A stretch of 29,157 bases of DNA from Candidatus Iainarchaeum sp. (lineage in GTDB: Archaea; Iainarchaeota; Iainarchaeia; Iainarchaeales; DTGL01): contig JAVYME010000001.1 of NCBI GenBank assembly GCA_038736825.1, forward strand, positions 13,541 to 42,697, in the 5' to 3' direction. Below the pieces are notes generated by a model. The model did no database searches and had not been told where the DNA came from. It was given only the letters and a program-made list of their open reading frames with translations. Shown here piece by piece: positions 3,569 to 22,027 of the stretch. The translations under genes and the position numbers were made by a program. Positions within the stretch are counted from its first letter, which is position 1, and the number at the start of each line of letters is the position of its first letter.

Positions 3569-3577
3569 GTGGGAAAA

Positions 3578-5275: not shown

Positions 5276-5436
5276 ATGCAGGCAAAAATGCATGGGAAAA
5301 TATTATAAATAGGAATTCGTTATAATAAGAGAAAGAATAATATAATTGGTTGCCGGCAAAAAAAAGAATTTTCTTTAAAGCAAAAGAAATAAATAAAGAA
5401 AGAGAGCAATTAATTTGGGTAAAGAAATAAGTTAAT
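5276..5436 (+). promoter_or_regulatory. AT-rich intergenic region, probable promoter and 5' leader of the 5448 gene.
   Basis: This is the longest non-coding gap in the window. It has TATA-like tracts (tattataaat 5301..5310; TATAAT 5321..5326; aataatataatt ~5336..5347). It also has an 8-bp palindrome TGCCGGCA (5351..5358), an inverted repeat AAAGAA-tt-TTCTTT (5363..5376), and a 10-nt direct repeat AAAGAAATAA (5383..5392 and 5421..5430). No transcription start site can be assigned from sequence alone. Confidence 0.35.
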
Positions 5437-5440
5437 GGAG
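5437..5440 (+). promoter_or_regulatory. Shine-Dalgarno-like GGAG for ATG 5448.
   Basis: GGAGTGG with a 7-nt spacer to the ATG. Confidence 0.55.
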
Positions 5441-5447
5441 TGGTTTG

Positions 5448-8400: not shown

Positions 8401-11400
8401 AGGCAAGCATTTCAATTCTCTTGGATGGCATTCCAATCGGCGGTGGCTTTACTGACTCAGAGGGAATGTTTCCCTTAAAAATAGAGGCACCAAAAGCAGG
8501 CTCAAAAGTAAAAGTTTCAGCCGCAAAACCCGGATACAAGCCAGTGGAAAGAGAAATACTAATAGATGACAAAATCATAACCGTGATTCCGCCAAAAATC
8601 TCGCTTGACATGATGGCAAACTCTGGCCAGAGCGCAAAAATAAAGTTTTCAATTGAAAACGGAAGCGCAATAACCTTAAAAGTGTCATCTTTAACTCTTG
8701 CAAAAGAAATAGCGCCATACCTGCTCATAAAATCCCCAGAACAGCTTGTGGGAAAAGAAATAGAGGCAGGCAAAACCCTTGAGGCAGAACTCGACGTGGA
8801 ATTAACCAAAGAAGGCATTAACACTGAAAAACCAGTGAATTTGGACAGCAAGCTTTCAATTGAAGTGGAAAGCACTGAATTTTCCAGAAAATGGGTTTCA
8901 GACTTGGGAATTGCGTTCAGAATACTTTTAGGACAGCAAACCGACAACAAGGACTGCCTTTCAATAACCCCGACTGAATGGAAGTTTTCCACTTATGGAG
9001 CAGACAAAAAAATCACCCTTGAAGTAAAAAACAATTGCACTGCAAACAGCAAGCCTGTTTCCCTAAAAGACTTTGAGGTTGCAATTGCTTGGGCTGACGA
9101 AACAATGCCAGGCGAGTTCAGGCTTTCAAGCGATTCTTTCACGGAAGAGGGAAAAACAGACATTGCACTAAGCGACGCCTTTGCAAAAATTTCCAGCACA
9201 ATTCCAGCAGAATTTGAAGGAACCCTTACACTCTCATTCAAGCCCTCGAGTGCAACAAAAAGCGCTGAATCAAACCCAGAAATCTCTTTCAGGGCAAAAC
9301 ATGTTTCAGAAAAAGGAATTGAAAAACTGAAAGCCAGCGTAAAGGTTTCCTTACTGGTTAACAAGCTTGCAGAATGCCTGCAAATAATCAAGGAAAGCGA
9401 AGAAATAGAACTGAAAACCCTCCCATACAATTATGGCTGGGGCATAGTGCAAGACTATTTCGACAAAGACCCTTACGCTGAAACCACGGGAACAGGGCAA
9501 GGACAACAAAACCCGTACTCCAATCCGACAACCCAATACCAGTCGCCATGGGGCACCACTTACGGTTATCCTCCATGGAGCACTCAAACATACCAGTGGC
9601 AGACAAGAGACGGTGAAGCAGAGGAAGGCTCTTTCAAGCTTGAAAACTCTTGCAAGGAAGCAGTGCAGGTAAGCCTTTCCACAAGAGCCGGCCTGGAAAT
9701 AGAGGAAAAAGAATTTGAAATAGCCTCAGGTGCTTCAAAAGATGTTGTTTTCACTCCAACCACCAAAATCGGAAAGTTTGAAATAAAAGTCAGGGCAAAA
9801 CTGAAAAGCGAGTCCGCTTTCTACAAGGAAATCGGTTCAGTGAAAGTAAGGGTTTTAAGGTTTGAAGAAATTTCAGAAAAATGCAAGCCAACAGTTGAAC
9901 CAACATATTTCACTGCAACCTTCCTTGGATGGCAAATGAGCGCTGGCAGAATAATAAACAATTGCGTGGACTTGGGTTACAAGCTGAAACCCCTTACAAG
10001 GGAAAGATTCCACTGCTATAAGCCACCCCAGGGCACAGACATGACTGGCACCTGCCCACTCATAGAAGCAGTGTGGAGCCAGAGCCCGGTAGTGCAAAAA
10101 ATAAACGAAGACCAAAGCATTGAAGTGCTGGAATTCGGTTTAAAATTCAACCCCAACATTACAGAACAAATGCAAATTCCAATGGAAGGCCCGATAGAGA
10201 AAAGAGTTGGAAAACTAAGGATTGTGTTCTCCAATCTTGCAAACTCACTCATTTCACCCGGAATAATCAGCATTCCAATCCTGACACCAGAGGGAAAAGA
10301 AAAATTCATTCCAAGAGAAGTAACCTTTGAAGACCCCTTTGAATGGATTGGCGTTATAGGAATGCTGATAAACAGCGGAGACCCAGACAAACTGCCAGAA
10401 GAATGCATTTTCAACAAAAACTATTTCGTTTTGGAAAGCTGGGGCGCAGAATGGAAAGAATTGAAAGACACTCATTTCACAGAAAACAGGTTTGCCTGGA
10501 AAGAAAAAGTCCCAAAAAGAGAAATGGTTTTGCCCTATGCAATCTCAAACGATGAAGTTTTAGACAAAAAATATTGTGGTTCCACTGACAAAATCCAGTC
10601 AGTAACACCTCCAACCCTTGAAGACAGTGAAAGCGGTCTCAGGCTTTCATTCAACATCACAGAAAACGGCCATCACGTGGTAATGGTTGTGGACAGAAGC
10701 CAGATGGCAACAAAGTGCGCAAAAATAGACAGAACCATCACTCTCACAGTGAAAAGAGCCTTCTATAAAACCGATGCAGCTGAAGTGAAAATGCCAGTGA
10801 AACTTACAGTGTTAAACAAAGGCGTAACAGCATACACTGCTGGATGCGAAAACCAGCCACTTGAAGCAAAACCAAAACCAGACTGGGCTTCAAATACAGC
10901 CTGCACAAGCCTTGAAACAGGACCGGAGGCTTTCACAAAACTTGGCTTTGACAGGATAAAATTCAACTGGCGTGCAGGCGAAATACCTGCAAATGCATGC
11001 GATCCAATAATTGCAGGCACCACCACAGCAAACCCGAAATACATTTTTTGCGATGCAGTGCAGTTCTCGCTCGCATTAAGCAAAAAATTCAATGAAACAA
11101 GAGCACTGGCTGACAAAATCTCGCAACAATTGCAGGAAGACCCCTTAATGTCAAAAACTGTTTCAGTGATAGCGCAGGACAGCGCGCTAGTGAAAGAAAT
11201 CAATAGCACGCCTGGAAAGCTTTACAAGATTTACAAAAAACAGCTTGCAGTGCACGACAATGAAACAGGCAAAGACTATTTGTTGTTCCTTGCAGAAGAC
11301 ACTGTTGACGGCAGTGTTTCCCTGCTTGCACCTCCAAAAAAGGCAAACGCAGTCGGCTGTGACACTGCCAAAATCCAAAGCGATTTAACTGGATGGATTA

Positions 11401-13109
11401 ACGCGCTCTCAACCGCAAACGAACAGTCAACAGCGGCTTCTCTCTCTTCAATTCCGCAAAAGTTTGCTGGAATGCTTTCCGCATGCTATGGAACAGACAT
11501 TGATGGCTCCAACGTGATTGCAATAATTCCAAAAACAATTGACAACAGCATGGCAGCAAACCCTGACACCAAAATACTGTGGGAAGGAATGCAAGGAAAC
11601 ATATTTGAATTCGAGGAAGGCTCAGGCAATTCCTATCTGGGAATTGATGCCTACATAATGACTTTCGAAGAATACAAAAAAATCCACTTGGAATTGTTGG
11701 CGCAATGGACTTCAGCGAAAAGCGCTGGAGAAGAAGATCCCACGCTGGTAGTGCAATTAGGTGGCACTGAATTCAGTGCTCTCTCCTCAGCATGGGTTAA
11801 GTTCTTGAACAACTTGAACAATTCAGGCATATCCTTCCAGATAGGCTTAAGGAACAGGAAAGCCATGAGCGAGGCAAGAGAGGCGTTTGTGAGAGACAAG
11901 GCAGCAAATGCAATCAGTGCAAGCCTTGAAAACCTTGCAGGTTCAAAGGTAACCATGGCAAGGCTGATAAAGGACAATTATTCTGAAACCTTTTTGAAGG
12001 ACTTCACTTCCTATTACAAGGACACTGGGTTCAGTGCAGACCAAATCAAATTCGAACTCTATGACTCGTATTCTGCCGCCAGCGGCTTTGAAGGCGGAGA
12101 CCAGCTATTGCCGGTTTTACCGGATTCAGGCGAATACTATTACAGGATTGAACCAGTGATTGCCCTCAACCTTTCAGGCGACAATTATTCGCTTGTATTG
12201 AAAAAGATTGTGGTGAAAATGGCATTGAACAAAGGGCTTGTGGAATTGAGCAATTCAGAGGGAAAGGTTTACGATTTGAATCCGTTCTTTTATTTGCCTT
12301 TTGATGGCGAAGTCGGGCAAGGGAATACGGCTGCAGACTATGGTGTTGGATTCGCTTCAGATGTTGGCAGCAAAATCTTTTATTCAAACGAATCGCAAAA
12401 CAATTGGTTTGCCGCAGTTCCAAGAATGCCTGGCATAATCACTCTCACTCCCAATTATTCAGACAAATATGACAAAGTGCGATCCGGCTCAGTTCTATCC
12501 ATAAACCGCACAAAAGGCACTTTCAATTACACGCCCTCATACCCGGTTGCAATTAAAGCTGAATGGGATGGCGGCACCAACAACACAATCTTTTACAGGT
12601 TAGCGCCAGCCAGTTATGGAGACATCAGCAAAATGAACGAATTGTTTGTGTGGTGGCAGGGCACAGAGGCAAGATCTGATGCCTTCAAGGAAACAGAGGG
12701 CGATCCGTTTTGCGAGGGCTGGACTGAAAAACAGCGCGCAGCAAAAGTAATGTTCAACAATGTTTCTCCATGGAATTCACTTGCATTCATGCCGGCAAAC
12801 GCGGGCGCTTTCAGGTTTGAATTGTTGTGCGCAAAACAACCCACTACAATTACAGCCCAGCCATTTGAAAGCGAACCTGTTTCCACTGCCAAGACAACCA
12901 CTTCAAGCGGGGGCTCTGTTGCATTGGTTGAGCAAGCTGGAAGGATTGTTGCAATCCAAGACTATATTGACAGAATCCCCAAGGGAGAGATTTGCATAAA
13001 CAAAGGCCGCGGGTTTGCAAGTGGAACTGTTGCCACACTGGATTTGAGTTGGAACACTTATATTCCGGGACTGACAGAAAATTTCATGCCGCCACCGGGA
13101 GGAAGCTGA
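5448..13109 (+). CDS. Giant membrane-anchored surface protein, paralog (2,553 aa).
   Basis: The track ORF is 5445..13109 (TTG). The ATG at 5448 is preceded by GGAG (5437..5440) with a 7-nt spacer. It has an N-terminal TM helix, six beta-sandwich repeats, the conserved R-G-W-G domain and the conserved C-terminal module. Stop TGA 13107..13109. Confidence 0.92.
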   Translation: MALEALKEKWVAFSDWLEEKGIPVPLFFLLILLLVVGIIYFAFPELFGVVAPPKDAKLTVTVVDSESNALKDAIVKVVENKVQLGEEQKTNSEGKTEFIIKGGAGKTVTVIAKYGEVEGSKDVKLSETSNNPKITLKVKPAIASFSKTVRFLDKDGSIIRKNVSFSALCEGNPSFSKTQLQTGSGEYTLSEIPGDCGNLKISVSEVGGSVNFSEGQFRGAVSASIEPVNVKIIEEAKKGTIIVYVKKKDGGDFDSSKNCRVSLEAIEGGDYVPSQTTESTGSAKFENVTPGTYSASVSCSGYKAVPSTDKKTLAPGGKISFDLYVEDAQQFSVKFLVYEKGNKSKKVEGIALELKDSASKYVGSCTTDKSGVCTIIVPENKQYTLYAKKGTIAVKLSDNTANKVSPRDTAYEFYYDAALEENPNMLIVTVKEADSKAPIEGAKIELFFATGELIGQTANITGFTGADGKLEFASVPAGSYFIQASVSTFQPGKSGTFTIEETQEKPKEVSLELTIPKGNFSIAVVNSSNQAMPNASIKAVNIVDGATINTVKSDKDGMAKMSIRADKRPFFIVELPGYLPFVTTIFRPVAGVTTEIKALLLEETSALSVKLEGLYKENALVKDSVESGQAYTARLLLVVPNKGYASAGIHFRAGSDEEGKTTLASDDIIAVGAVESVAQRIVRSVSYSPPNGAASDTAKLAGASEAAKWTEIEWLLGKNGLPEFGVFSATVEVLIDAMATEGDLAKISYRGWGAKTTYDRDPVDSVLGTSANASTKQGLYAKAYDVVYSLGQANLCLEGYCRIVSIEDLATKSKVSVFDKASLNISSAYRLNFTINKQAATSTKNAKISISGKEKGLRFGNYSVKDALGGTTPGKASGFSISTDIGTLDQYKTISGWIEFETVKSGVTNLVIAIESEKGIEMQQSIAVTVQPGKTMKIDFVPKEIIPVLDNQMVFRVFEETIVESEETEEGEKPVTEKVQVGVPEASISILLDGIPIGGGFTDSEGMFPLKIEAPKAGSKVKVSAAKPGYKPVEREILIDDKIITVIPPKISLDMMANSGQSAKIKFSIENGSAITLKVSSLTLAKEIAPYLLIKSPEQLVGKEIEAGKTLEAELDVELTKEGINTEKPVNLDSKLSIEVESTEFSRKWVSDLGIAFRILLGQQTDNKDCLSITPTEWKFSTYGADKKITLEVKNNCTANSKPVSLKDFEVAIAWADETMPGEFRLSSDSFTEEGKTDIALSDAFAKISSTIPAEFEGTLTLSFKPSSATKSAESNPEISFRAKHVSEKGIEKLKASVKVSLLVNKLAECLQIIKESEEIELKTLPYNYGWGIVQDYFDKDPYAETTGTGQGQQNPYSNPTTQYQSPWGTTYGYPPWSTQTYQWQTRDGEAEEGSFKLENSCKEAVQVSLSTRAGLEIEEKEFEIASGASKDVVFTPTTKIGKFEIKVRAKLKSESAFYKEIGSVKVRVLRFEEISEKCKPTVEPTYFTATFLGWQMSAGRIINNCVDLGYKLKPLTRERFHCYKPPQGTDMTGTCPLIEAVWSQSPVVQKINEDQSIEVLEFGLKFNPNITEQMQIPMEGPIEKRVGKLRIVFSNLANSLISPGIISIPILTPEGKEKFIPREVTFEDPFEWIGVIGMLINSGDPDKLPEECIFNKNYFVLESWGAEWKELKDTHFTENRFAWKEKVPKREMVLPYAISNDEVLDKKYCGSTDKIQSVTPPTLEDSESGLRLSFNITENGHHVVMVVDRSQMATKCAKIDRTITLTVKRAFYKTDAAEVKMPVKLTVLNKGVTAYTAGCENQPLEAKPKPDWASNTACTSLETGPEAFTKLGFDRIKFNWRAGEIPANACDPIIAGTTTANPKYIFCDAVQFSLALSKKFNETRALADKISQQLQEDPLMSKTVSVIAQDSALVKEINSTPGKLYKIYKKQLAVHDNETGKDYLLFLAEDTVDGSVSLLAPPKKANAVGCDTAKIQSDLTGWINALSTANEQSTAASLSSIPQKFAGMLSACYGTDIDGSNVIAIIPKTIDNSMAANPDTKILWEGMQGNIFEFEEGSGNSYLGIDAYIMTFEEYKKIHLELLAQWTSAKSAGEEDPTLVVQLGGTEFSALSSAWVKFLNNLNNSGISFQIGLRNRKAMSEAREAFVRDKAANAISASLENLAGSKVTMARLIKDNYSETFLKDFTSYYKDTGFSADQIKFELYDSYSAASGFEGGDQLLPVLPDSGEYYYRIEPVIALNLSGDNYSLVLKKIVVKMALNKGLVELSNSEGKVYDLNPFFYLPFDGEVGQGNTAADYGVGFASDVGSKIFYSNESQNNWFAAVPRMPGIITLTPNYSDKYDKVRSGSVLSINRTKGTFNYTPSYPVAIKAEWDGGTNNTIFYRLAPASYGDISKMNELFVWWQGTEARSDAFKETEGDPFCEGWTEKQRAAKVMFNNVSPWNSLAFMPANAGAFRFELLCAKQPTTITAQPFESEPVSTAKTTTSSGGSVALVEQAGRIVAIQDYIDRIPKGEICINKGRGFASGTVATLDLSWNTYIPGLTENFMPPPGGS
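5517..5576 (+). other. N-terminal TM anchor or signal-anchor of the 5448 giant.
   Basis: V-P-L-F-F-L-L-I-L-L-L-V-V-G-I-I-Y-F-A-F follows a ~24-aa charged tail ending K-G-I-P. Confidence 0.75.
5613..7244 (+). repeat. Six tandem ~85-90-aa beta-sandwich repeats (carboxypeptidase-regulatory-like / PEGA-like) at protein level.
   Basis: Each unit has the pattern [LIV]-x-[LIV]-x-V-x-D/K...G-x-P-[LIV]-x-G-A-x-[LIV]...T-[DN]-x-x-G-x-x-x-F...G-x-Y-x-[LIV]...G-[YF]. One example is NMLIVTVKEADSKAPIEGAKIELF...TGADGKLEFASVPAGSYFIQAS. This was assigned by eye, without an HMM. Confidence 0.65.
7389..7874 (+). other. Conserved ~160-aa domain of unknown function (copy in the 5448 giant).
   Basis: G-I-H-F-R-A-G ... 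K-W-T-E-I-E-W ... Y-R-G-W-G ... D-P-V-D-S-V-L-G ... G-L-Y-A-K-A-Y ... C-L-E-G-Y-C. Confidence 0.7.
9426..9614 (+). repeat. Low-complexity Q/Y/P/W/T/G-rich linker (63 aa) in the 5448 giant.
   Basis: The translation is YNYGWGIVQDYFDKDPYAETTGTGQGQQNPYSNPTTQYQSPWGTTYGYPPWSTQTYQWQTRDG. I saw no counterpart in the other paralogs. Confidence 0.8.
10959..13106 (+). other. Conserved C-terminal module (copy in the 5448 giant, ~715 aa).
   Basis: K-F-N-W-R-A-G (10959), C-D-A-V-Q-F-S (11049), P-F-F-Y-L-P-F-D-G (12282..12308), and the terminal I-V-A-I-Q-D-Y-I-D-R-I-P-K-G-E-I-C-I. Confidence 0.7.
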
Positions 13110-13188: not shown

Positions 13189-13193
13189 GGTGA
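13189..13193 (+). promoter_or_regulatory. Shine-Dalgarno-like GGTGA for ATG 13202.
   Basis: GGTGA with an 8-nt spacer to the ATG. It overlaps the GTG (13190) that the ORF track used as the start. Confidence 0.55.
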
Positions 13194-13201
13194 ACCAGTC
13201 A

Positions 13202-16200
13202 ATGAGCTCCCTGAAAGACTTGTACTATCATTTAGAAGACAGATATTATGAAGTAATAGACAAAATAAGCGCTAAAATTCCAATAAACAAGATAACCGAT
13301 GCAATAGACAAAGTCTTTCCAAGCTTTGCATTGCTGCTCTTAATAATTGCCGCTCTCCTCTTATACTTGATATTCATTTTCTTGCTGCCAGTCATTTCAG
13401 CCAAACCAGGAGTCCTCTCGCTAACAGTAAAAGACACTCAAAAAAACCCGCTTGAAGGAATAATTGTAAAAATAACCTATGGAAAAGAAACAACAGAATT
13501 CAAAACCGACAGTGAAGGCAAAATCCCTGACTTCAATGTATTCATTGGAGACACAGTCAAAAAAGTCTGGATTGAACCCGACAAAGAAGACTACAAATTC
13601 AAAACCCCTTCAAGTGGAGAAATCTCTGAAATAAAAATAGAAAAAGAAAGAACAACCCTGTCCTTTGTTTTGGAAGAAATAATAAAAACAAAAGAAATAA
13701 CCATTAAACTAATTGACTCCAAAACAGGCGGGCTTTTAAGCGACAAAAAAGCCTATGCTGACATTTCCTGCACAGACCCAAGCCTTAAAGCACCAGGGCC
13801 AGTGACAATTGAAAGAGGCGTTCTAACAGTAACACTGCCAATTAACTGCATTCCCAGGCTGGATGTAAGAATGGATGGCTACAAGCGATGGAACAACACC
13901 ATTGGGCCTGACGGAATAGTAAAACTTGAAGCCGAAGAACCCATTGTGCCGCCTGAACCAAAAACAGGAGATCTCACAGTAAACCTTTACTATGACAAGG
14001 ACAAAAGCAAGCGCGTCACCGAAGAAATAAAAGTCAACCTTTACATGGTTGAAGAAGGCGCAATAGACAGCAGTCCAATAGACAATAAAACCACTTTAAG
14101 CGGGCAAGTGCAATTCAAGGAACTCCAGCCAGGGCAATACAAAGTGAAAAGCATTGCAACAGAAACCCTGACAGGCGAAGAATCAACCACAATTTATGTA
14201 AACGCAGGCGACAAAAAAACCACTTCTTTATACTTGAAAGACAGAATCATTGGCTATATAAAACTAAAAATAATTGATGAAACCTCTGAAGCTCCAGTTA
14301 AAGATGCAAGGCTCACCCTCAAAAAAGGCCTTGTGGAAGTGGAAAGCGGGCTTACAAAAGAAACCGGGGAATACACTTTCAGCCTAAAAGAAGACACTAA
14401 ATACAATCTCGTCATAGACAAGGAAGGCTATTGCCTAACCAAGCTTTCAGAGCTAACCAAAGGCAATGACATAAAGCAAATAAAGCTCAAAAAATACACT
14501 GGGCTTGCAAGCCAGTGCGGTGGCGCACTCATAGTGAAAGTGCAAAACGAGGCAGGGCAAGGCATTCAAGGCGCAATAGTAATGTTGTTTGACAAGGAAG
14601 GCTATTACACTGGAACCCAGAGGACAACCGACATAAACGGAGAAGCAAAATTCACAGGCATTTCAAACGGCACATACAAGGCATTCGCTTATCGCGGATA
14701 CAGCAAGGGCTGGAGTGAAACAACAGAATACAATGTAAGGGAAGGCGCAGAAAAAGACCTTTTAGTGACCATGGTGATGCAAAACGGCACACTCAATGTA
14801 AAAATACTTGATTTGGACAAAAAACCATTACAGTACTCTTTCATCACCCTCAAAAAAGCATTCAATGATGAAAAAATTGCTGGGCCAAAAATAGTGGAAA
14901 ACGAAGACGGCACAATCTCGTTTGACGTCATTGCAGGCGAACCAGTGTTCTTTGTAATCCAAAAAGAAGGCTATTCAACGCTTGTATCACAACCAGTAAC
15001 CGTGGAACCAGGTGCAACCAAGGACTTGAACTTCATGCTTGAAATAATGCGCATAAGCGGAGAAGTGAAAGGCGAATTCTTGGGATTGTTTAAAAACAAC
15101 AAGAGAGTTTCAATTGCAGGCGCAGGAGAAGAATACACAGCAAAATTCAGGCTTTCAATGCCTGAAAACGCTGGCTATGAAAAAGTCGGATTGCATGTAA
15201 GAACAGGCTATTCAAGCAAAATGGAATTAGACCACATTTACATAAAAGAAGAAAAAGTTCCAGGCAATCCAAACATTTTGAAAGGCACCTCTTTTGACAA
15301 AACACAGGGAATAAACATAGACTCGCAGTTTTTGAGCGCTGACGGCTCAAAATGGATGAACTTTGAATGGTCCAATTACACTAAAGGGCACATATACTTG
15401 GAACTAATAATAAAAGTCAGGGACACAGCCAAACCGGATTCTGAACTTCCAATTTTTTGGCGCGCATGGGGCAAAAAAGGAAACCAGATTGCAAGAGACC
15501 CAAAAGATGTTTCTCTTGGAACAACAGAATCACCGCAAGACCTTTACGCAGACGCTTACAAGAAAACCTTCCAGGTTGGCACAGAAACCCTTTGCACTGA
15601 AAAATGGTGTTATTCGGTAAAAATTCTAGACATAGAGGAAGACCTGGTGCGCTCCATAGACAACACGTATTCTGCAAAAGTCGGCAGGCCTTACAGGCTT
15701 TCCTTCAGCATTCTCAACAACAGCAGAAGTGAAACCGACACATTCCACAACGTGAGCGCAAAAATCTGGAATCCAGAGGAAGCAATAGAATTTGGCAAAT
15801 ACAATTTCACAGGCGAACTATCCATAGACGGAAACGCGCAAGGCAGTGAAACCCCAAGCGCAATGATTGGCACTATTGCCCCAAACAGAGAAGTAAGAGG
15901 CACTCTTTACTTTACACCAAAAACAAGCATTTCCTCCACATTAAGGATTAGACTGCATGACCCGGACAGGCATGAAAACATATTTGAAAAAGAAATAACA
16001 ATAGAAGTGCTTGCAGCAGAGCAATTCAAGATATTGTTTGAAAAAGACGGCGAATACGGTGACACTCCGCCAACACTGCCCAGCGGCATAGAAAACGAAA
16101 TAAAGGTAAAAGTGCAAAGGGCTCGCGACGGGCTTGAAGTGAGTGGTGCAACAGTAAAGCTTCAAAACAAGTTTGGCGACACTCTTTCACAGACAACAAC

Positions 16201-19200
16201 AACAGGCTTTGGAATTGCAATAATAACAATTCCAATCCTTGCACCAGGGCAAAAACTCTTTGTGGTTGCAGAAAAACCAGACTATCAAGCACTAAAAAAA
16301 GAAATAACAGTTGACACTTCAGTCCTGGAAGTGAAACCAGACAAGGTTTCATTCAATTTGAGCGTAATAGACTTGCTCCCTGACACAAAAACAATCGCGT
16401 TAACCAATTTAACCCAGATGGAATTAACCCTTTCAGACATCAAGTTCACAGGCGACTTTTCAGGCTTAGTGGACGAAGCCAAAGCAAATGAATGGCTGCG
16501 CACAGAATACCTGGGCAAAAAAATTCCATCCAAGGAAAAAATTGAAATTGCCTCCAAAGCAGAATTAAGCGATTTGGGAAAAATAACCGAAACAAGCCAG
16601 ACACTCAAGGGAAAAATAGTCTTCACTGTTTCAGCAATGGGGCAATCATGGGTGTTCCAAACAGAAACAACAATTGCAATCGCCCTTGGAGGCGAAGTCG
16701 ACGACCCCAACTGTTTCACAGTAGACAAAGCATCCTGGCAGTCAATAACCCAAGGAAAAGAAACAGCCACAGACATAAAAATCTCCAATTCTTGCACTGT
16801 AAAAGGAAAACCAGTTGAACTCAAAAACATTTCAGCAAAAATTGAATGGAAAAGCAACCGCCTTGGAGATGTATGGGTAAAAATCCAAGACATAGCAATA
16901 GCCCTCAAAGGCAATTACCCGAAAATCATGAGAGGCTCGCTTGAAAAAGAAAGCGACATGACCGGAATGATTTCCTTCATTCCAGATGCGGGCATAGTTG
17001 GCACAGCAGAAGCAACAATCACCTTCACAGCAGAACACCCCACAAGCGGCGGAAAACAGATTTTAAGCGATTCAATGGACATTTCAATAAAAATAATAAA
17101 CATGGCAGGCTGCTTGAAGTTTGACAAAGACTTAATCAAAATAATGGAAGGAGAAGAAGGCGCTTTCACCATAGAAGCCACAGAAAACTGTGGCGGCAAT
17201 GTAGACCTGCAATTGGACACAGAACTCATGACTTCAGCGAAAAAGTTTTCCTTGAAAGTAGGCGAAACAAAAGAAATAACAGTGCAATCCCTTGAAAACT
17301 ATCCAGGCGCATACCCCATCTATGTTTTCGCCAAAGGACCAGGGCAAAGCGAATACAGTTTCACAAAACTTGTAAGAGTAATAATAGAAACAGAGGGATG
17401 CATAAGGCTAAGCCAGTACGAGTTCGACATACAAGACTGTGAAAACAATCCCTATGACGGATTCGACACCGCCAAAATAATAAACGTCTGCCATTCAAAA
17501 ACAGTCAACGCACAAGTTAAATTCAGCGAAAAAGACTGGCTAAAAGCATTCTTGAACTCTTGGCCTTGGGCTATAGGCGGCTTCCTATACGGAGGCTTGA
17601 ACGCAATGAGCCAAGGCAAAACCTTTTGGGGCACAGACAAGCCTGAAACAACTTGTTCAAAAACAGGATTGCAGTATTGTTCTGGAAAAATGATGTGCAA
17701 AAACGACAACATAAAACAGGTTGGCAGCGTAATCTGCTGCGCTTCAGAATGCGTTACCGGAGAACAAGGCAAAACCTTGAGGGACGAAATGTGCGAAAAG
17801 AAAGGGTATATTTATTGCGCTACAGGCAAATGCGTTGGCGAACCAGTGCCAGTGAGCGGAATATATTGTTGCAAAGGCAAATGCCAAGACCAGTTTGAAA
17901 TAGAAGAATTCACCAAAATCTGCAAAAAACACGGCTTCCAGTACTGCAAAGAAGGAGACGAATGCTCTGACAAATTTGAATGGGTTGAAGGAGTGCACTG
18001 TTGCACTGGAAAATGCAGTCCACCGGAAAAAACCCCGCAAACAATGGCTTGCTCTGCAAAAGGCTTGAAATTCTGCAATGAATCCAATGGCTGGGTTTGC
18101 CCGAGCGGTCAAGAAGTAATAGACGAACAAAAACACGTAAAATGCTGTGCAACAGACTGCATAAGGCAAGAGGAAAAAACCTGGGTTTGCAAGGAAAACG
18201 AAACCTGTCCAAGAGGCACAAAAGACAAATGCCTTGAACCATGCACTCCGCCAGTGCAAGAAATGACAACCGAAGACGAAAAATGCAAATCAGAAAGCCC
18301 CAATTACGATTTTTGCCAGAAAGGAGAAGCATGCCTTAGCGGAACAATCAAAGTGCAAGGAATAGATTGCTGCAAGAGCATGTGCGTTGACCCAACCAAT
18401 CCAGACTATTACAACCAAGCCTGCAAAGCCTTTGACTCCAGTTACAGGTTTTGCGATAGCAGAACAGAAAAATGCTCGGTAACCCCAAAAACAATAACAG
18501 ATCCAGCAACCAAAAAACCCGGACTGGAATGCTGTCCAAAGGAATGCACTCCACTGGAACCAGAAGAAGAAACAGAAGAAGAAGAGGAAGAAGAAGAGGA
18601 AACACCACCGGTTTCAGAAGACCAATCCCGCACTTGCCTGCAAGCAGTGGGAATAATTGTAGTCGTCAAACCAGATGGCTCAAACTGGAAAGTGGAAGAA
18701 ATATGCAGCAATCCAGAAGAACCGGTTTTCAGTCATTACTGCCATTTAGGCAAGTGCATGACAGGCACTGAAATCTGCAAAACCACAAACGGTTACCCCA
18801 ACTTTTGCAATATAAGAAACGGTTACACTTGCCCGGAAGGCCAAGGCGTATGGTTAAAAGAAAAAGAAGGATGGCAATCACACTTGTGCTGCAAACAGGA
18901 ATGCGTAAAACAAACACCAAAATGCGTTGAAGGAGCAGAAAAAGGCTATGAATGCTCTTCTGACGGAAAAACACTTTTAGTGAGAAAAACCCACGCGGAT
19001 TGCAGTGAATACACTGAAACATTTGAAGATTGTTCAGCCAAAGGAATGCAATGCAAGGGAACCGAATGCGTTGCCACTGAAACAAGCAGGGGCGCAACAC
19101 AAGATTATGCAACGCTTGACGCACAATGCAAAAGCTTTGGCTATGGCGAGTACTGCCCGCAAGGAAACATTTGCGAAAAAGGCGGTTGCTCGAGCTGTCC

Positions 19201-22027
19201 AAACACTTACCCGATAAATGTCTCCTCAGGACTATCCTGTTGCGGTACAGGCAGGTATTGCAGCATAAGAAAACAACAATTCAGTCCAACAACCACTTTG
19301 ACACAACAACAAATCTGTGATGGTGCAGGAATGGGTCCGGCTTGCACAACTGAGTGCAGTCCCTGCACTGGAGAAAGTTGCGGAATGCCAATAAAACCAC
19401 AAACAGCCACTTACAATGGTCAAACCGCCTCTTGTTGCCCTGCAGAAACAGTTATTAACGGCAAAATAGCATCCTATAATTGTGTAGCCCAAACAGCAGT
19501 CCAGCCACAATTGCCTTTCATGCCTGTTGCGCTTGCAACTGCTGGCAGCCTGCTGGATTTGGGTGGCTCCCTCTTTGGAACGCTGAACACTGCAATAAAT
19601 TCAGTGCTTGGCATTGACAATCCATGGATGGGTGCTTTGGTGGGCACAATTGCCGGCACATTCTATAATTATTCACAGCAAAAGGAAGGCGTGCTGCCCT
19701 ACATGACAACCGCGAGAGACTTGAACGTTTTGTCAGTGAAACTGTTCATTCCAATGGGTTTAGAGGAAAAACCTGAAACACAAATAATTGTGGAAACAGG
19801 CACTGTTTCGAAAAAACCCAACAAGGATTTCCCGTTAGGGCAAGAGGAAACAGAACTAGTGTTCAAAAACAATGGAATAAAACAGGAAGAACCCTACAAG
19901 CCGATTTTCCGCACCTTTAAAGTGGAAGGCGAAAAATACGATTACAACACAGAATTCGAGGTTAAAATGGAAAAAGACGCTGAAAAGCTCAAAAAAGGGC
20001 AATTCCTTGAAGTGAAAACCAAGGAAGGCTTCACTCAAAAATTCCACTTGCAATTCAATGCTTATTGCGCTAAAGAAACCCCGCCAGTTGTCCAAGAAGA
20101 GGTTTCCTGCATGATTGGCGACATGACTGGAATAACCGGGCCAAATGCAGTGCCAAAGGTGTTGTTCAAATGGGATTGGTCAAGCATTAAGGAAAACACT
20201 TGCGATGAAGACGGAGAAGGCATGTATTGTGATGCCACACAGTTCTCCATAGAATTACTGAAAAAAATCAACCAAGTGGACACTCTTTTAAGGGGACAGT
20301 CTTTCGCTTGCCCTGAAATTGAAGGCGCTGTAAGCGACAAATCACAGCCATTAAGCCAAAACGACAAAGATGTTGGGCTTACCAGGATAAGGATTGCAAA
20401 GGACGGCAAAAATGCAAAAGTGATTGGAACCATTGAAAGCAACAATCAAACAGAAATGACTGTAAAAGGCGTTATTTCGCTCACAAAACAGGGCACCACT
20501 TCAATAATTGCATGCCCTGAAGCGCCAAACGGCGAAAAAGCAGTGCAGGTTACAAGCAGAGAGGAAATGGATTGCACTTTCAGCAGCCTGCAAGACGGCA
20601 TTTACACTGCAAGCATTCAAATCCTGCCACAGCTTTCAACCTGCAAAGCCGAATGCAAGAACGCAGAAACAGCCAATGACAGAATCGAGGTTTTAATGGT
20701 TATTGGCTCTGGCGCTCCAGCAAAATGCGAGCCTTATTCGACTGCAAGGCTTGGAGAATACGCAATCGCAAACCCAGGCAATGCCAACCTCAAAAAAGCA
20801 GCGGATTTAACCAATTTCAAGGCAAACCTTATAATGGACGGTTATACCACTGATTTCAGAAACGACTTTGACGAATTCGCGCACAAAAACGATTTCTTTA
20901 ACACGCCATCCTATTACAAGGGCGACACTGGCTTATGGAAATACTTTAAAAACCCAGACTTAATGCAATTCGAATCACCATTCCTGAGACCAGAATCAGG
21001 ATACTTGTTGAGCGGAAAATACCAGGTAAGCATTGAAATAGAATACAAGGATTCCTCTTGGTCTCTCTTCAAGGGAACAGAGCCAAACGCAAAAATAAAA
21101 GTAAAACTCAACAAGCTTGTAAGCACTGCTCCAGACTCGCCATTCTATTACATGCCATTCAATGGCCTCATTGGAGTGGAAAGCAATAATGGAAGGCAAG
21201 GCTATGGCGTAAACTATAGGCAGGACTCTCTTGCAACAATAAACGTGAACGAGGACCCAAAACAACTCATAAGGACAAGCACTATTGCCATGAGCTCAAC
21301 CATACCTGGCGCTTGGGTTTACACTGCAAAAAGCAACAATTTCCGCACCCTCAACAATGACAAGCGCGGAGTAGTGCTTGACGTTGAACGCTCTTCCTCA
21401 GAATCAAGCATTGTTTTAAGCCCAAGCAATGCAACCCCGCTCATCCTAAAAGTCTCAGGAGGCAAATCCGATAGAGCGTGGGCTTTCTATTCAATGACAA
21501 TAGACGGTGAACCCCAAATAACTGGCTCCAGCCTTACAACTTGGACTGGCTTTACCAGGGGTTGCAGGGATTTCACCGACAAAGAAATAACCGAAACCTA
21601 TATGAACCGAAAAGACTTGCATGGCGGGATTTCCAGCGAGCAAACCTGTGCGCCAGTGCAAAGAAAAAGCGATTACGGCCTTGAATGGTGTGACGTGAAA
21701 AGACAAGGCAATGTTTTGCTGAAAACAGTTCTTTTCACTCCACAAGGCTCTGAAGCATTCATTGAATTGACAGACAGCCAGGACGACGCAGTCTTTATTG
21801 CTCCAGGCACTGCTGGAGGCAAAAAGGTTCACTTGAGCGGCATTTATGCAGGACGCATTGAATCCATTGAAAAAGTGTTCGAACTAGTAAAAGCAGAGGA
21901 CATTTGCGTTGCCGGTGTCGGCAATTCAGCGAAAACAGTCTTTTTCTGGAACCCGAAAGTGATAATAGAAAAATCATTAAAGCAATACATTGACAATGCA
22001 ACCAATGAATGCATTCTGCCCAAATAA
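13202..22027 (+). CDS. Giant membrane-anchored surface protein, paralog with an internal ~610-aa Cys-rich repeat array (2,941 aa).
   Basis: The track ORF is 13190..22027 (GTG). The ATG at 13202 is preceded by GGTGA (13189..13193) with an 8-nt spacer, and it gives the N-terminus M-S-S-L-K-D-L-Y-Y, which aligns with the N-termini of the other two complete paralogs. Stop TAA 22025..22027. Confidence 0.92.
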   Translation: MSSLKDLYYHLEDRYYEVIDKISAKIPINKITDAIDKVFPSFALLLLIIAALLLYLIFIFLLPVISAKPGVLSLTVKDTQKNPLEGIIVKITYGKETTEFKTDSEGKIPDFNVFIGDTVKKVWIEPDKEDYKFKTPSSGEISEIKIEKERTTLSFVLEEIIKTKEITIKLIDSKTGGLLSDKKAYADISCTDPSLKAPGPVTIERGVLTVTLPINCIPRLDVRMDGYKRWNNTIGPDGIVKLEAEEPIVPPEPKTGDLTVNLYYDKDKSKRVTEEIKVNLYMVEEGAIDSSPIDNKTTLSGQVQFKELQPGQYKVKSIATETLTGEESTTIYVNAGDKKTTSLYLKDRIIGYIKLKIIDETSEAPVKDARLTLKKGLVEVESGLTKETGEYTFSLKEDTKYNLVIDKEGYCLTKLSELTKGNDIKQIKLKKYTGLASQCGGALIVKVQNEAGQGIQGAIVMLFDKEGYYTGTQRTTDINGEAKFTGISNGTYKAFAYRGYSKGWSETTEYNVREGAEKDLLVTMVMQNGTLNVKILDLDKKPLQYSFITLKKAFNDEKIAGPKIVENEDGTISFDVIAGEPVFFVIQKEGYSTLVSQPVTVEPGATKDLNFMLEIMRISGEVKGEFLGLFKNNKRVSIAGAGEEYTAKFRLSMPENAGYEKVGLHVRTGYSSKMELDHIYIKEEKVPGNPNILKGTSFDKTQGINIDSQFLSADGSKWMNFEWSNYTKGHIYLELIIKVRDTAKPDSELPIFWRAWGKKGNQIARDPKDVSLGTTESPQDLYADAYKKTFQVGTETLCTEKWCYSVKILDIEEDLVRSIDNTYSAKVGRPYRLSFSILNNSRSETDTFHNVSAKIWNPEEAIEFGKYNFTGELSIDGNAQGSETPSAMIGTIAPNREVRGTLYFTPKTSISSTLRIRLHDPDRHENIFEKEITIEVLAAEQFKILFEKDGEYGDTPPTLPSGIENEIKVKVQRARDGLEVSGATVKLQNKFGDTLSQTTTTGFGIAIITIPILAPGQKLFVVAEKPDYQALKKEITVDTSVLEVKPDKVSFNLSVIDLLPDTKTIALTNLTQMELTLSDIKFTGDFSGLVDEAKANEWLRTEYLGKKIPSKEKIEIASKAELSDLGKITETSQTLKGKIVFTVSAMGQSWVFQTETTIAIALGGEVDDPNCFTVDKASWQSITQGKETATDIKISNSCTVKGKPVELKNISAKIEWKSNRLGDVWVKIQDIAIALKGNYPKIMRGSLEKESDMTGMISFIPDAGIVGTAEATITFTAEHPTSGGKQILSDSMDISIKIINMAGCLKFDKDLIKIMEGEEGAFTIEATENCGGNVDLQLDTELMTSAKKFSLKVGETKEITVQSLENYPGAYPIYVFAKGPGQSEYSFTKLVRVIIETEGCIRLSQYEFDIQDCENNPYDGFDTAKIINVCHSKTVNAQVKFSEKDWLKAFLNSWPWAIGGFLYGGLNAMSQGKTFWGTDKPETTCSKTGLQYCSGKMMCKNDNIKQVGSVICCASECVTGEQGKTLRDEMCEKKGYIYCATGKCVGEPVPVSGIYCCKGKCQDQFEIEEFTKICKKHGFQYCKEGDECSDKFEWVEGVHCCTGKCSPPEKTPQTMACSAKGLKFCNESNGWVCPSGQEVIDEQKHVKCCATDCIRQEEKTWVCKENETCPRGTKDKCLEPCTPPVQEMTTEDEKCKSESPNYDFCQKGEACLSGTIKVQGIDCCKSMCVDPTNPDYYNQACKAFDSSYRFCDSRTEKCSVTPKTITDPATKKPGLECCPKECTPLEPEEETEEEEEEEEETPPVSEDQSRTCLQAVGIIVVVKPDGSNWKVEEICSNPEEPVFSHYCHLGKCMTGTEICKTTNGYPNFCNIRNGYTCPEGQGVWLKEKEGWQSHLCCKQECVKQTPKCVEGAEKGYECSSDGKTLLVRKTHADCSEYTETFEDCSAKGMQCKGTECVATETSRGATQDYATLDAQCKSFGYGEYCPQGNICEKGGCSSCPNTYPINVSSGLSCCGTGRYCSIRKQQFSPTTTLTQQQICDGAGMGPACTTECSPCTGESCGMPIKPQTATYNGQTASCCPAETVINGKIASYNCVAQTAVQPQLPFMPVALATAGSLLDLGGSLFGTLNTAINSVLGIDNPWMGALVGTIAGTFYNYSQQKEGVLPYMTTARDLNVLSVKLFIPMGLEEKPETQIIVETGTVSKKPNKDFPLGQEETELVFKNNGIKQEEPYKPIFRTFKVEGEKYDYNTEFEVKMEKDAEKLKKGQFLEVKTKEGFTQKFHLQFNAYCAKETPPVVQEEVSCMIGDMTGITGPNAVPKVLFKWDWSSIKENTCDEDGEGMYCDATQFSIELLKKINQVDTLLRGQSFACPEIEGAVSDKSQPLSQNDKDVGLTRIRIAKDGKNAKVIGTIESNNQTEMTVKGVISLTKQGTTSIIACPEAPNGEKAVQVTSREEMDCTFSSLQDGIYTASIQILPQLSTCKAECKNAETANDRIEVLMVIGSGAPAKCEPYSTARLGEYAIANPGNANLKKAADLTNFKANLIMDGYTTDFRNDFDEFAHKNDFFNTPSYYKGDTGLWKYFKNPDLMQFESPFLRPESGYLLSGKYQVSIEIEYKDSSWSLFKGTEPNAKIKVKLNKLVSTAPDSPFYYMPFNGLIGVESNNGRQGYGVNYRQDSLATINVNEDPKQLIRTSTIAMSSTIPGAWVYTAKSNNFRTLNNDKRGVVLDVERSSSESSIVLSPSNATPLILKVSGGKSDRAWAFYSMTIDGEPQITGSSLTTWTGFTRGCRDFTDKEITETYMNRKDLHGGISSEQTCAPVQRKSDYGLEWCDVKRQGNVLLKTVLFTPQGSEAFIELTDSQDDAVFIAPGTAGGKKVHLSGIYAGRIESIEKVFELVKAEDICVAGVGNSAKTVFFWNPKVIIEKSLKQYIDNATNECILPK
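13322..13396 (+). other. N-terminal TM anchor of the 13202 giant.
   Basis: S-F-A-L-L-L-L-I-I-A-A-L-L-L-Y-L-I-F-I-F-L-L-P-V-I follows a ~40-aa charged tail containing A-K-I-P-I. Confidence 0.75.
13406..15040 (+). repeat. Six tandem beta-sandwich repeats (carboxypeptidase-regulatory-like) at protein level.
   Basis: One example is GGALIVKVQNEAGQGIQGAIVMLFDKEGYYTGTQRTTDINGEAKFTGISNGTYKAFAYRGYS. The number and position are the same as in the two other complete paralogs. Confidence 0.65.
15188..15646 (+). other. Conserved ~155-aa domain of unknown function (copy in the 13202 giant).
   Basis: G-L-H-V-R-T-G ... K-W-M-N-F-E-W ... F-W-R-A-W-G ... D-P-K-D-V-S-L-G ... D-L-Y-A-D-A-Y ... C-T-E-K-W-C. Confidence 0.7.
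17537..17609 (+). other. Gly/Trp-rich hydrophobic segment H1 preceding the Cys array.
   Basis: W-L-K-A-F-L-N-S-W-P-W-A-I-G-G-F-L-Y-G-G-L-N-A-M. Confidence 0.6.
17654..19483 (+). repeat. Array of about nine degenerate 40-55-aa six-cysteine modules (~610 aa, ~70 Cys) inside the 13202 giant.
   Basis: The recurrent pattern is C-x(3,6)-G-[FYL]-x-[YF]-C-x(3,7)-C-x(8,20)-C-C-x(3)-C. Examples are CSKTGLQYCSGKMMCKNDNIKQVGSVICCASEC, CEKKGYIYCATGKCVGEPVPVSGIYCCKGKC, CKKHGFQYCKEGDECSDKFEWVEGVHCCTGKC, CSAKGLKFCNESNGWVCPSG...KCCATDC, C..NYDFCQKGEACLSG...DCCKSMC, C..YRFCDSRTEKC...ECCPKEC and C..YPNFCNIRNGYTCPEG...LCCKQEC. Confidence 0.85.
18557..18602 (+). repeat. Acidic tract E-P-E-E-E-T-E(9) encoded by a GAA/GAG purine run.
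   Basis: The sequence is gaa cca gaa gaa gaa aca followed by nine gaa/gag codons (18575..18601). An uninterrupted 29-nt purine run spans 18574..18602. It lies between Cys modules 6 and 7. Confidence 0.9.
19511..19667 (+). other. Gly-rich hydrophobic segment(s) H2 following the Cys array.
   Basis: L-P-F-M-P-V-A-L-A-T-A-G-S-L-L-D-L-G-G-S-L-F-G-T-L-N-T-A-I-N-S-V-L-G-I-D-N-P-W-M-G-A-L-V-G-T-I-A-G-T-F-Y. Confidence 0.6.
20156..22024 (+). other. Conserved C-terminal module (copy in the 13202 giant, ~620 aa).
   Basis: K-V-L-F-K-W-D-W (20156), C-D-A-T-Q-F-S (20228), F-K-A-N-L-I-M-D-G-Y-T-T-D-F, P-F-Y-Y-M-P-F-N-G (21140..21166), N-G-R-Q-G-Y-G-V-N-Y, and I-E-S-I-E-K-V-F-E-L-V-K-A-E-D-I-C-V. Confidence 0.7.

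Follow-up and report, generated by a model that had tools for sequence, protein, structure and literature searches.

Where does a long run of closely spaced cysteines lie when it interrupts a giant archaeal protein, inside the cell or outside it, and are its thiols paired with each other or with metal? The question is raised by a 29,157-nucleotide (nt) stretch of the genome of Candidatus Iainarchaeum sp. (GenBank assembly GCA_038736825.1, contig JAVYME010000001.1, positions 13,541 to 42,697 of the forward strand). This whole stretch is called the window below, and all unprefixed nt positions refer to it. Open reading frame (ORF) D of the window encodes 2945 amino acids (aa), with a Cys array inserted between Gly-rich hydrophobic segments. 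An earlier interpretation made from these letters alone (the sequence-only reading) had set out two arrangements: either the flanks are transmembrane (TM) helices and the array is a cytoplasmic, metal-binding part of a protein that threads the membrane three times, or the whole region is an extracellular, disulfide-knotted stalk whose flanks might engage the membrane of another cell. Our analysis indicates that the array probably lies outside the cell, as a hypervariable stalk or binding array rich in disulfides.

A tandem array of six-cysteine modules

The array extends from C1489 to C2098 of D, and these 610 aa hold 72 of the 100 Cys residues of the protein (11.7% Cys, against 1.3% in the remainder of D). 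It consists of seven canonical copies of a module with the spacing C-x7-9-C-x4-7-C-x11-18-CC-x3-C and five irregular Cys units. A looser regular expression, C-x3-9-C-x3-8-C-x8-24-CC-x3-4-C, matches seven times, compared with a mean of 0.45 and a maximum of 4 in 5000 shuffles of the array. Alignment of eight units gave the consensus xxCKxxGYxYCxxGxxCxxxxxxVxGxxCCxxxC, in which all six Cys are invariant and a conserved Gly-aromatic-x-aromatic motif stands just before the second Cys (C2). A hidden Markov model (HMM) of 26 modules from four orthologs recovers the seven canonical modules of D with independent E-values (i-E) of 2e-6 to 3e-11.

Gene D, like the features described for it here, lies on the + strand. 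The array is entered through a junction, SQGKTFWGTDKPETT (17609..17653), which leads into module 1 and is conserved in an alignment of four orthologs. Canonical modules M1 to M4 (aa 1489-1521, 1535-1565, 1578-1609 and 1621-1657; together 17654..18160), found by the HMM and with six Cys each, are joined by linkers of 11-13 aa and followed by S1, an irregular unit of four Cys (CKENETCPRGTKDKCLEPC; 18188..18244) recognized by Cys count and ortholog alignment. M5 (aa 1699-1732) and M6 (aa 1745-1786), again HMM matches, occupy 18284..18547 and precede a Glu-run linker, EPEEETEEEEEEEEETP (18557..18607), which was located by Tandem Repeats Finder and the ortholog alignment; the orthologs have at this position a linker rich in Pro, Thr, Gln and Glu or in Gly. 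The remainder of the array comprises S2, a degenerate module with four Cys that was identified in the ortholog alignment (aa 1816-1856; 18635..18757), the canonical M7 (aa 1863-1905; 18776..18904; HMM), S3, an irregular six-Cys unit ending in C-x5-C-x4-C (aa 1912-1960; 18923..19069; Cys count and alignment), and two degenerate units delimited by Cys count, M8 (aa 1980-2024) and M9 (aa 2043-2098; together 19127..19483). M8 and M9 have eight Cys each and keep the CC motif, and neither obtains a score with the 26-module HMM. Linkers throughout the array are rich in Pro, Thr and Glu.

Much of this anatomy had been described correctly in the sequence-only reading. Its ~610-aa array, with the coordinates and flanking sequences given for it, is exact: nt 17537 falls on aa 1450, the start of WLKAFLNSWPWAIGGFLYGGL, nt 19511 on aa 2108, the start of LPFMPVALATAG, and nt 19667 within aa 2159, in ...AGTFY. 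It had estimated ~70 Cys and had noted the Glu run as an interruption of the array, and the strict module pattern that it proposed matches the array four times and none of the 5000 shuffles. Its count of about nine units holds for the seven canonical modules and fails for the last two, and what it took for two irregular Cys spacers are in fact three, S1, S2 and S3. The Gly-rich hydrophobic brackets are real and conserved, with the correction that the downstream bracket is made of two segments, H2 and H3, rather than one. That the array is an insertion is borne out by paralog E of the same window, which aligns to D 51-1448 and 2281-2899 with ~230 aa between these regions, compared with ~830 in D.

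The suspicion that the module falls outside the named Cys-rich families was also upheld. Pfam gave nothing on the array even at E ≤ 10 (the whole protein was searched at E ≤ 0.1), NCBIfam had no match for the module, and PDB chain sequences, queried with the profile and with the whole array, gave nothing significant (best E 0.37). A HMMER profile search of 1.84 billion representative proteins returned a single real match, P0014 (E 1e-21; P-numbers denote homologous proteins and L-numbers fetched genomic loci, 79 of which were scanned); the other 15 matches were partial, to bacterial FCAxGGxxCxDG repeats. A word-indexed homolog search with the array had no matches and is uninformative, as it also missed D and P0014 themselves, both of which are in the collection. 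Full-text literature searches brought up no description of this family or module. AlphaFold2 (AF2), run on module 1 with an alignment of the eight paralogous modules, predicts a short N-terminal helix followed by a β-hairpin that runs into the CC pair, with a mean predicted local distance difference test (pLDDT) score of 88.5. Foldseek found no PDB match for this model at E ≤ 10 and nothing meaningful in BFVD, being a weak tool for 37 residues. As a sequence family the module is new, and its fold may be new as well; giant surface proteins with small Cys-rich modules in tandem are an already known kind of design. One further candidate, a single module in L050 (11813-13651; CKESGGIICEDYEVCKGVILKANDTNRCCLGTC), matched the regular expression, obtained no score with the 26-module HMM and was treated as a chance match. 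The L050 ORF encodes a secreted papain-like protein of 613 aa with a hydrophobic N-terminal segment ending in LSGC.

The hinge and the side of the membrane

Three segments bracket the array. H1 (aa 1450-1473; 17537..17608; WLKAFLNSWPWAIGGFLYGGLNAM) is rich in Gly and aromatic residues, H2 (aa 2108-2131; 19511..19582; LPFMPVALATAGSLLDLGGSLFGT) is rich in Gly, Ser and Ala and is conserved across the D-like subfamily by alignment, and H3 (aa 2143-2160; 19616..19669; DNPWMGALVGTIAGTFYN) carries a glycine-zipper-like G-x3-G-x3-G. H2 and H3 together form a conserved element directly N-terminal to the C-terminal part of the protein (C-part), with the pattern ...GGSLxGxLxxAIxxxLGxxNPWxGxxxGxxxGTxxxY. 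The approximate insertion free energies (dG) of H1, H2 and H3, taken as unweighted 19-residue sums on the Hessa 2005 scale, are +8.7, +5.9 and +9.3, compared with -7.6 kcal/mol for TM1, the N-terminal signal-anchor helix of D (aa 46-68; 13325..13393; FALLLLIIAALLLYLIFIFLLPV; Kyte-Doolittle hydropathy 3.36), which is preceded by a 45-aa N-terminal tail. H1-H3 of D are too polar for membrane insertion.

Most relatives differ at this site. For 62 family ORFs (loci L004-L079 and the window) the upstream sequence was long enough for comparison. In 51 of them a hydrophobic helix precedes the YCDATQF motif of the C-part by ~200 aa and has a Cys no more than 14 residues after it, usually in the context (D/E)DPC. 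The median dG of this helix is 0.7 kcal/mol, reaching down to -5.0, and it is often preceded, across a very short turn, by a second helix rich in Ala and Gly with a C-D-W motif (for example L056 ORF aa 1440-1530 and L064 ORF aa 1450-1505). Paralog E has its own hydrophobic, Gly-rich segments at the junction (aa 1483-1580, nt ~26589-26882) and no Cys array. These features suggest that the family segment is a membrane hairpin in mid-protein with both ends on the outer side, possibly stapled by its two flanking Cys. In D, L001, L078 and paralog C the flanking Cys and the hydrophobicity are both missing. H1 takes the position of the first helix of the hairpin (helix a) and H3 is homologous to the second (helix b). 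Judged by alignment, H1-H3 are degenerate homologs of the family-wide hairpin and are conserved like globular parts of the protein; identity to P0014 is 72% in the H1 region (aa 1450-1481), about equal to that of those parts. Set between H1 and H2/H3, the array stands where the hairpin has its loop.

It is this position that speaks for a cytoplasmic array. Should H1 and H3, or H1 and H2, still be TM helices, D would cross the membrane three times and the array would form a cytoplasmic metal-binding loop, for Zn for example, between helix a and helix b. The homologous segments in the 51 ORFs, often a pair of helices joined by a tight turn, with Cys on either side (C-D-W ... DPC), fit such a topology, as does the reducing archaeal cytoplasm, in which 72 Cys would need metal. 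We nevertheless regard this topology as quite improbable. The dG values of H1-H3 are far from that of TM1, and both hairpin-flanking Cys are gone in the D lineage. C-x2-C and C-x-C knuckles are absent from the canonical modules and His is scarce in the array; Pro/Thr/Glu-rich linkers and conserved Cys with hypervariable loops are typical of secreted proteins.

The layout of split orthologs provides a further argument against TM flanks. In L004 the D ortholog is divided into two genes (4462-9984 and 10001-12952) exactly at the array site. The first encodes a protein of 1840 aa, alignable to D 8-1481, in which H1 is followed at the C-terminal end by a poly-Gly/Ser stretch and an acidic tail of ~380 aa; this tail holds a small CC-bearing six-Cys motif. 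The product of the second gene, P0002, aligns to D 2125-2942 and consists of a canonical signal peptide, four Cys, a Gly-rich stretch, H3 and the C-part. P0006, P0007 and P0009-12 likewise have a signal peptide followed by H2/H3 and the C-part, and P0006, as P0002, has a short four-Cys stretch directly after the signal peptide. In the split orthologs the region before H2, H2, H3 and the C-part thus come right after the signal peptide, and H3 as a TM helix is therefore incompatible with their layout if the C-part stays on one side.

A parity argument leads to the same side. We assume that each segment has equal TM status across orthologs and that the C-part always lies on one side. If these assumptions hold, only two states are self-consistent, one with no TM helix among H1-H3 and one with H2 and H3 as a hairpin. 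Both states keep the array on the side of the N-terminal part (N-part), which leads us to infer that the array is extracellular. The density of N-glycosylation sequons was also considered as a topology marker and is uninformative (3 in the array, 2.9 expected).

Evolution of the array and probable cysteine pairing

The Cys counts per unit of D are 6, 6, 6, 6, 4, 6, 6, 4, 6, 6, 8 and 8, all even, and the array totals in the three complete orthologs are 72, 74 and 18. The list of Cys gaps has no C-x-C or C-x2-C knuckle in the seven canonical modules; C-x2-C occurs only twice in the array, in the degenerate M8 and M9. His makes up 1.1% and Glu 10.7% of the array. The N-part, which lies outside by virtue of the signal anchor, also has conserved Cys pairs. 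These data suggest internal disulfides rather than metal sites in the units of the array.

Arrays occur in only four Iainarchaeota genomes, those of D, P0014, L001 and L078, with seven, at least eight, at least eight and three canonical copies respectively. P0014 (MCX6802905.1, 2991 aa) is the D ortholog of a metagenome-assembled genome (MAG) from Lac Pavin sediment. Scanning of the 79 loci gave arrays only in L001 and L078 (Iainarchaeum AUK252, exactly three modules), and no array was found in the Joint Genome Institute (JGI) metagenome contigs scanned. L001 (3624-12685) is the closest ortholog of D at the DNA level and has a run of N inside its Cys array; its public annotation consists of an 894-aa C-terminal fragment (P0001) only, and the array-bearing part is unannotated.

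Identity between D and P0014 is 75% in the N-part, 72% in the H1 region, 45% in the array, 75% in H2/H3 and 76.5% in the C-part. Between D and L001 it is 56% in the N-part, 42% in the array and 66% in the C-part; 64 of 69 aligned array Cys are conserved (about 93%), compared with 35% identity at non-Cys positions. Measured by these identities, the array evolves much faster than its flanks. Changes in Cys number involve whole blocks or pairs: S1 is missing from P0014 as an entire four-Cys block, and S2 of D aligns to a canonical six-Cys module in P0014 and L001, differing from it in the joint loss of C2 and one CC residue. This combination of a conserved Cys scaffold, hypervariable loops and changing copy number is as expected of disulfide-bonded extracellular mini-domains, and unlike zinc knuckles.

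Because the modules are only ~22-33% identical to M1, the array must be old, and recent duplication at the DNA level was rejected. The DNA repeats that Tandem Repeats Finder detects in the array are the Glu run and one weak 15-nt repeat only. A diversity-generating retroelement was considered as the source of hypervariability and dismissed, as the window has no template/variable repeat pair; an RVT_1 match on ORF B (E 0.14) is noise.

An extracellular array could also work through free thiols or chelated metal, for example by sequestering metal or attaching to surfaces of minerals or sulfides where oxygen is lacking. The topology arguments apply to this model equally, the habitat labels of related MAGs (groundwater, lake sediment) suggest low oxygen, and the acidic content of the array, together with the Glu run, could aid cation binding. 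On the other hand, strictly even Cys numbers per unit and losses in pairs or whole blocks fit pairing, the Gly-aromatic-x-aromatic motif and the confident, compact, ligand-free AF2 fold fit a structural mini-domain, and there are no His/Asp co-ligand motifs. We consider free thiols or chelation an unlikely basis for the function of the array.

The hinge that received the array accommodates other inserts as well. The insert between H1 and H2 measures 0 aa in E and ~35 aa in P0005 and amounts to three modules in L078, and by this comparison the hinge is an insertion hotspot in the family. Unrelated Cys-dense inserts are carried by two E-like paralogs, CLARSCDCSGACCPDHCTPTCSGCAC around the hinge in L016 (ORF from nt 1846, aa ~1720-1750) and CSCD...CIKDC...CYVDC...C immediately C-terminal to the hairpin of L074 (ORF from nt 382, aa ~1670-1740). 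Three near-identical four-Cys units of 25 aa, TNVCTPACDAATQECVNGVCQLKAI, stand at the equivalent junction in L002 (3-587) and L003 (3-461), where they close the gene that precedes P0012. Their ...EC-x-NG-x-C ending resembles the end of S3 of D and the four-Cys stretch of P0006.

The conservation of the flanks admits a different use of the hinge, in which the Gly-rich segments are membrane-active towards another cell, in the manner of fusion peptides or glycine-zipper pores, and the Cys array is the stalk that delivers them. H1-H3 are 72-75% identical to P0014, against 45% for the array, and H3 has G-x3-G-x3-G. Composition and hydrophobic moment come near those of the influenza HA2 and HIV gp41 fusion peptides, and H2/H3 lie near the mature N-terminus, after the signal peptide, in the split homologs. 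DPANN archaea, moreover, depend on contact with host cells. Set against this are the lack of a significant Pfam glycine-zipper or fusion match (best E 0.36, for the homolog P0006), the absence of AF2 structure in the hinge region and a downstream domain that is β-rich rather than a heptad-repeat coiled coil. It is simpler to view the segments as relics of the family's own membrane hairpin. We think it improbable that the segments act on foreign membranes. More doubtful still is an extension of the idea, in which the Iainarchaeota giants form a host-engagement apparatus and the hairpin of D, freed from the membrane and placed on a stalk of ~12 beads, is reused to insert into the host membrane; if true, this would be a cellular, non-viral membrane-insertion device derived from a TM hairpin.

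Several points weigh against an extracellular, disulfide-bonded array. It sits at the hairpin-loop site, the homologous segments are TM-like in most paralogs (dG to -5.0), and the ancestral loop would presumably be cytoplasmic. The dG estimate is a crude, unweighted sum. The AF2 module alignment has eight rows only, every one from a single protein, and the hinge of paralog E was returned at pLDDT 21-35 with no structure; at these low values, H1-H3 receive no prediction as buried strands. Groundwater and sediment are the main sources of Iainarchaeota MAGs; such environments are often anoxic, and extracellular disulfide formation is less certain there. Of the two arrangements in the sequence-only reading, the extracellular disulfide stalk is nonetheless favoured, by the polarity of H1-H3, the gene fission with a signal peptide on the second half and crossing parity, and also by even Cys counts, canonical modules free of C-x2-C and Pro/Thr/Glu-rich linkers. 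TM flanks with a cytoplasmic metal-binding array and three passes are disfavoured for D; the evolutionary root of that proposal, the hairpins of the paralogs, is real.

We propose the following model for the extracellular stalk. D would be a giant surface protein anchored as a type II (N-in) membrane protein, with an ectodomain made of a ~1,380-aa β-sandwich arm, a hinge and a conserved head of ~780 aa. At the hinge, E-like paralogs probably pass back into the membrane of their own cell. The hairpin of the D lineage would have lost its hydrophobicity and its two flanking Cys, and with them the second anchor; a new six-Cys mini-domain of ~33-43 aa may then have multiplied at the loop site to give an array of ~12 beads in all. 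Each unit is probably an autonomous, internally disulfide-bonded bead made of a short helix and a β-hairpin and joined to its neighbours by short Pro/Thr/Glu-rich linkers. Strung together, the beads could act as a rigid stalk, resistant to proteases, that would hold the C-terminal head at a distance from the cell and whose fast-evolving loops would be available for binding, presumably to the surface of a host or substrate. The stalk or binding role is what the data above suggest; a role in host contact is speculation from the DPANN lifestyle and the evolutionary signature.

The giant protein, its gene cluster and known systems

The window is nearly filled by five tandem ORFs on the + strand. 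ORF A (1..3558) is the C-terminal 1185 aa of a longer protein, B (3569..5275) encodes 568 aa, C (5445..13109) encodes 2554 aa and is a paralog of D, D (13190..22027) starts from GTG at 13190, and E, another paralog of D, runs from 22143 past the end of the window (>2338 aa). The deposited D protein, MEM0359717.1, begins at the ATG at 13202 and has 2941 aa; it is annotated as 'hypothetical protein QXK06_00055, Candidatus Diapherotrites archaeon' on a 157-kb contig. Iainarchaeota is a phylum in the kingdom Nanobdellati (DPANN). A single strongly hydrophobic helix stands in the N-terminal region of each of B, C, D and E, and the first ~1,000 aa of D, C and E have Pfam matches to CarboxypepD_reg, Big_1, SdrD_B and SpaA-type β-sandwich domains.

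The N-part ectodomain of D (aa 69-1449; 13394..17536) is a series of β-sandwich domains with conserved Cys pairs, as indicated by Pfam and BLASTP. CarboxypepD_reg (PF13620) matches in three stretches (E 5e-26; 91.3 bits, cutoff 32.3), SdrD_B, Big_1 and SpaA match in addition, and the N-part is homologous to paralogs C and E in BLASTP. The conserved C-part (aa 2163-2945; 19676..22024) was delimited by homolog search (13 homologs, E from 0 to 1e-44). Across its ~780 aa the motifs YCDATQFS, DGY..DF, YYMPFNG..G and FWNPK form invariant columns of the homolog alignment. In GTDB genomes there are 277 C-part loci, nearly all labelled Candidatus Iainarchaeum or Diapherotrites. The C-part family is without any Pfam model. 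For the equivalent region of paralog E, AF2 gave a β-rich model (pLDDT 60-90), to which Foldseek matched only generic immunoglobulin-like sandwiches. Pfam and NCBIfam detected no protease, nuclease or lectin domain in D.

The gene order C-D-E recurs in two other Iainarchaeota genomes (L001 and L004), where it is followed downstream by five small ORFs of 78-135 aa without significant Pfam match. Protein A has Gly-rich, weakly hydrophobic segments of its own (1603-1950 and 2764-2835; aa 535-650 and 922-945), for example LWVYLGACSGMNLACNLLTKAFLGLPIALP and FWKTLGRGIVCGAISNLAGLVAKQWF, which bracket an Ala- and charge-rich insert of ~270 aa; a design with a variable insert between Gly-rich segments may thus be general across the cluster. 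The coding strand of the window is skewed towards A over T (AT skew up to +0.38), and this skew gives rise to long spurious antisense ORFs, many of them Cys-rich (e.g. 8030-8992, 17744-18259 and 24707-25219). In L001 two antisense ORFs are annotated as genes in place of the real giant ORF. Three family-bearing contigs (L018, L060 and L065) sit in bins labelled Falkowbacteria, Chloroflexi and Thaumarchaeota, which are probably binning errors.

Eukaryotic extracellular proteins and toxins commonly use small disulfide-rich modules in tandem, which to our knowledge have rarely been described in archaea. The present family has no detectable relatives among ~1.8 billion representative proteins and is confined to four genomes. 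Its gain and loss of modules and its evolution of hypervariable loops on a Cys scaffold are of a kind seen in host-recognition proteins, and the gene that carries it belongs to a conserved tandem cluster of giant surface proteins across Iainarchaeota, an uncultured phylum. The hairpin result may have wider use than the array itself, as it provides a testable model for the membrane arrangement of the giants; in the D lineage the hairpin would have been lost and, at the same point, a stalk inserted or the gene split.

Among known systems, the module comes closest in size and plan to knottins (inhibitor cystine knots, ICK), EGF-like domains and conotoxins of framework XXIII (C-C-C-CC-C), with which it shares a length of ~33-43 aa, six invariant Cys and a short β-hairpin core. 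As in knottin-type mini-domains, hypervariable loops are carried on a conserved Cys scaffold in tandem extracellular use, and the joint loss of C2 and one CC Cys in S2 would be compatible with a 1-4/2-5/3-6 type of pairing. The knottin framework, C-C-CC-C-C, differs in that its adjacent Cys are the third and fourth, whereas those of D are the fourth and fifth. The spacing of the D modules and their G-aromatic-x-aromatic-C motif match no family in Pfam, NCBIfam or PDB, and their host is an archaeon. Structural comparison of the model at pLDDT 88.5 with knottins in PDB gave 0 Foldseek matches, a search that is weak at 37 residues. EGF domains are distinguished by C-x-C where the module has C4 and C5 adjacent, and Pfam has no EGF match at E ≤ 10. 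The only sequence similarity in PDB is to three-finger toxins of the Ly6/uPAR type, the muscarinic toxins resembling the C3...CC-x3-C half of the module in their C-terminal loop; the alignment is not significant (E 0.37-1.4), covers 19 of 36 profile positions, involves another Cys framework and is accompanied by no structural match. Zinc ribbons, Zn2Cys6 domains and metallothioneins share the high Cys density, with six Cys per unit, but M1-M7 have no C-x2-C or C-x-C, His is scarce and the site is probably extracellular.

The flanking segments recall other systems. With the glycine zipper 2TM families (PF05433 and PF13488) D shares the G-x3-G-x3-G of H3 (GALVGTIAG), and the helices of its paralogs (e.g. 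LGTYAALGAIAGGLLGG) form a two-helix hydrophobic hairpin rich in Gly and Ala. The glycine-zipper HMMs match neither H1 nor H2/H3 of D and reach only 11 bits in P0006, against a cutoff of 24; the D segments are too polar to span a membrane, and the family hairpin lies in the middle of proteins of >2,000 aa rather than in a small lipoprotein. A class I fusion peptide would be a Gly-rich hydrophobic segment at or near an N-terminus, such as one made by cleavage, ahead of a heptad-repeat coiled coil; H2/H3 follow a signal peptide in the split homologs but are internal in D, and AF2 modelled the downstream region of paralog E as β-rich with no long helix bundle. As a whole, D is best likened to the giant surface proteins of DPANN archaea and the Candidate Phyla Radiation (CPR), such as the nanohaloarchaeal SPEARE proteins, and to bacterial CarboxypepD_reg/Big adhesins. 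The likeness is one of architecture; no homology to SPEARE proteins was seen, though no search aimed at it was made, and D differs in having a C-part family and a Cys module that are without a Pfam model. What these proteins have in common is their size, a membrane anchor, tandem genes and β-sandwich repeats, to which D and the SPEARE-type giants add a reduced genome and a presumed dependence on a host.

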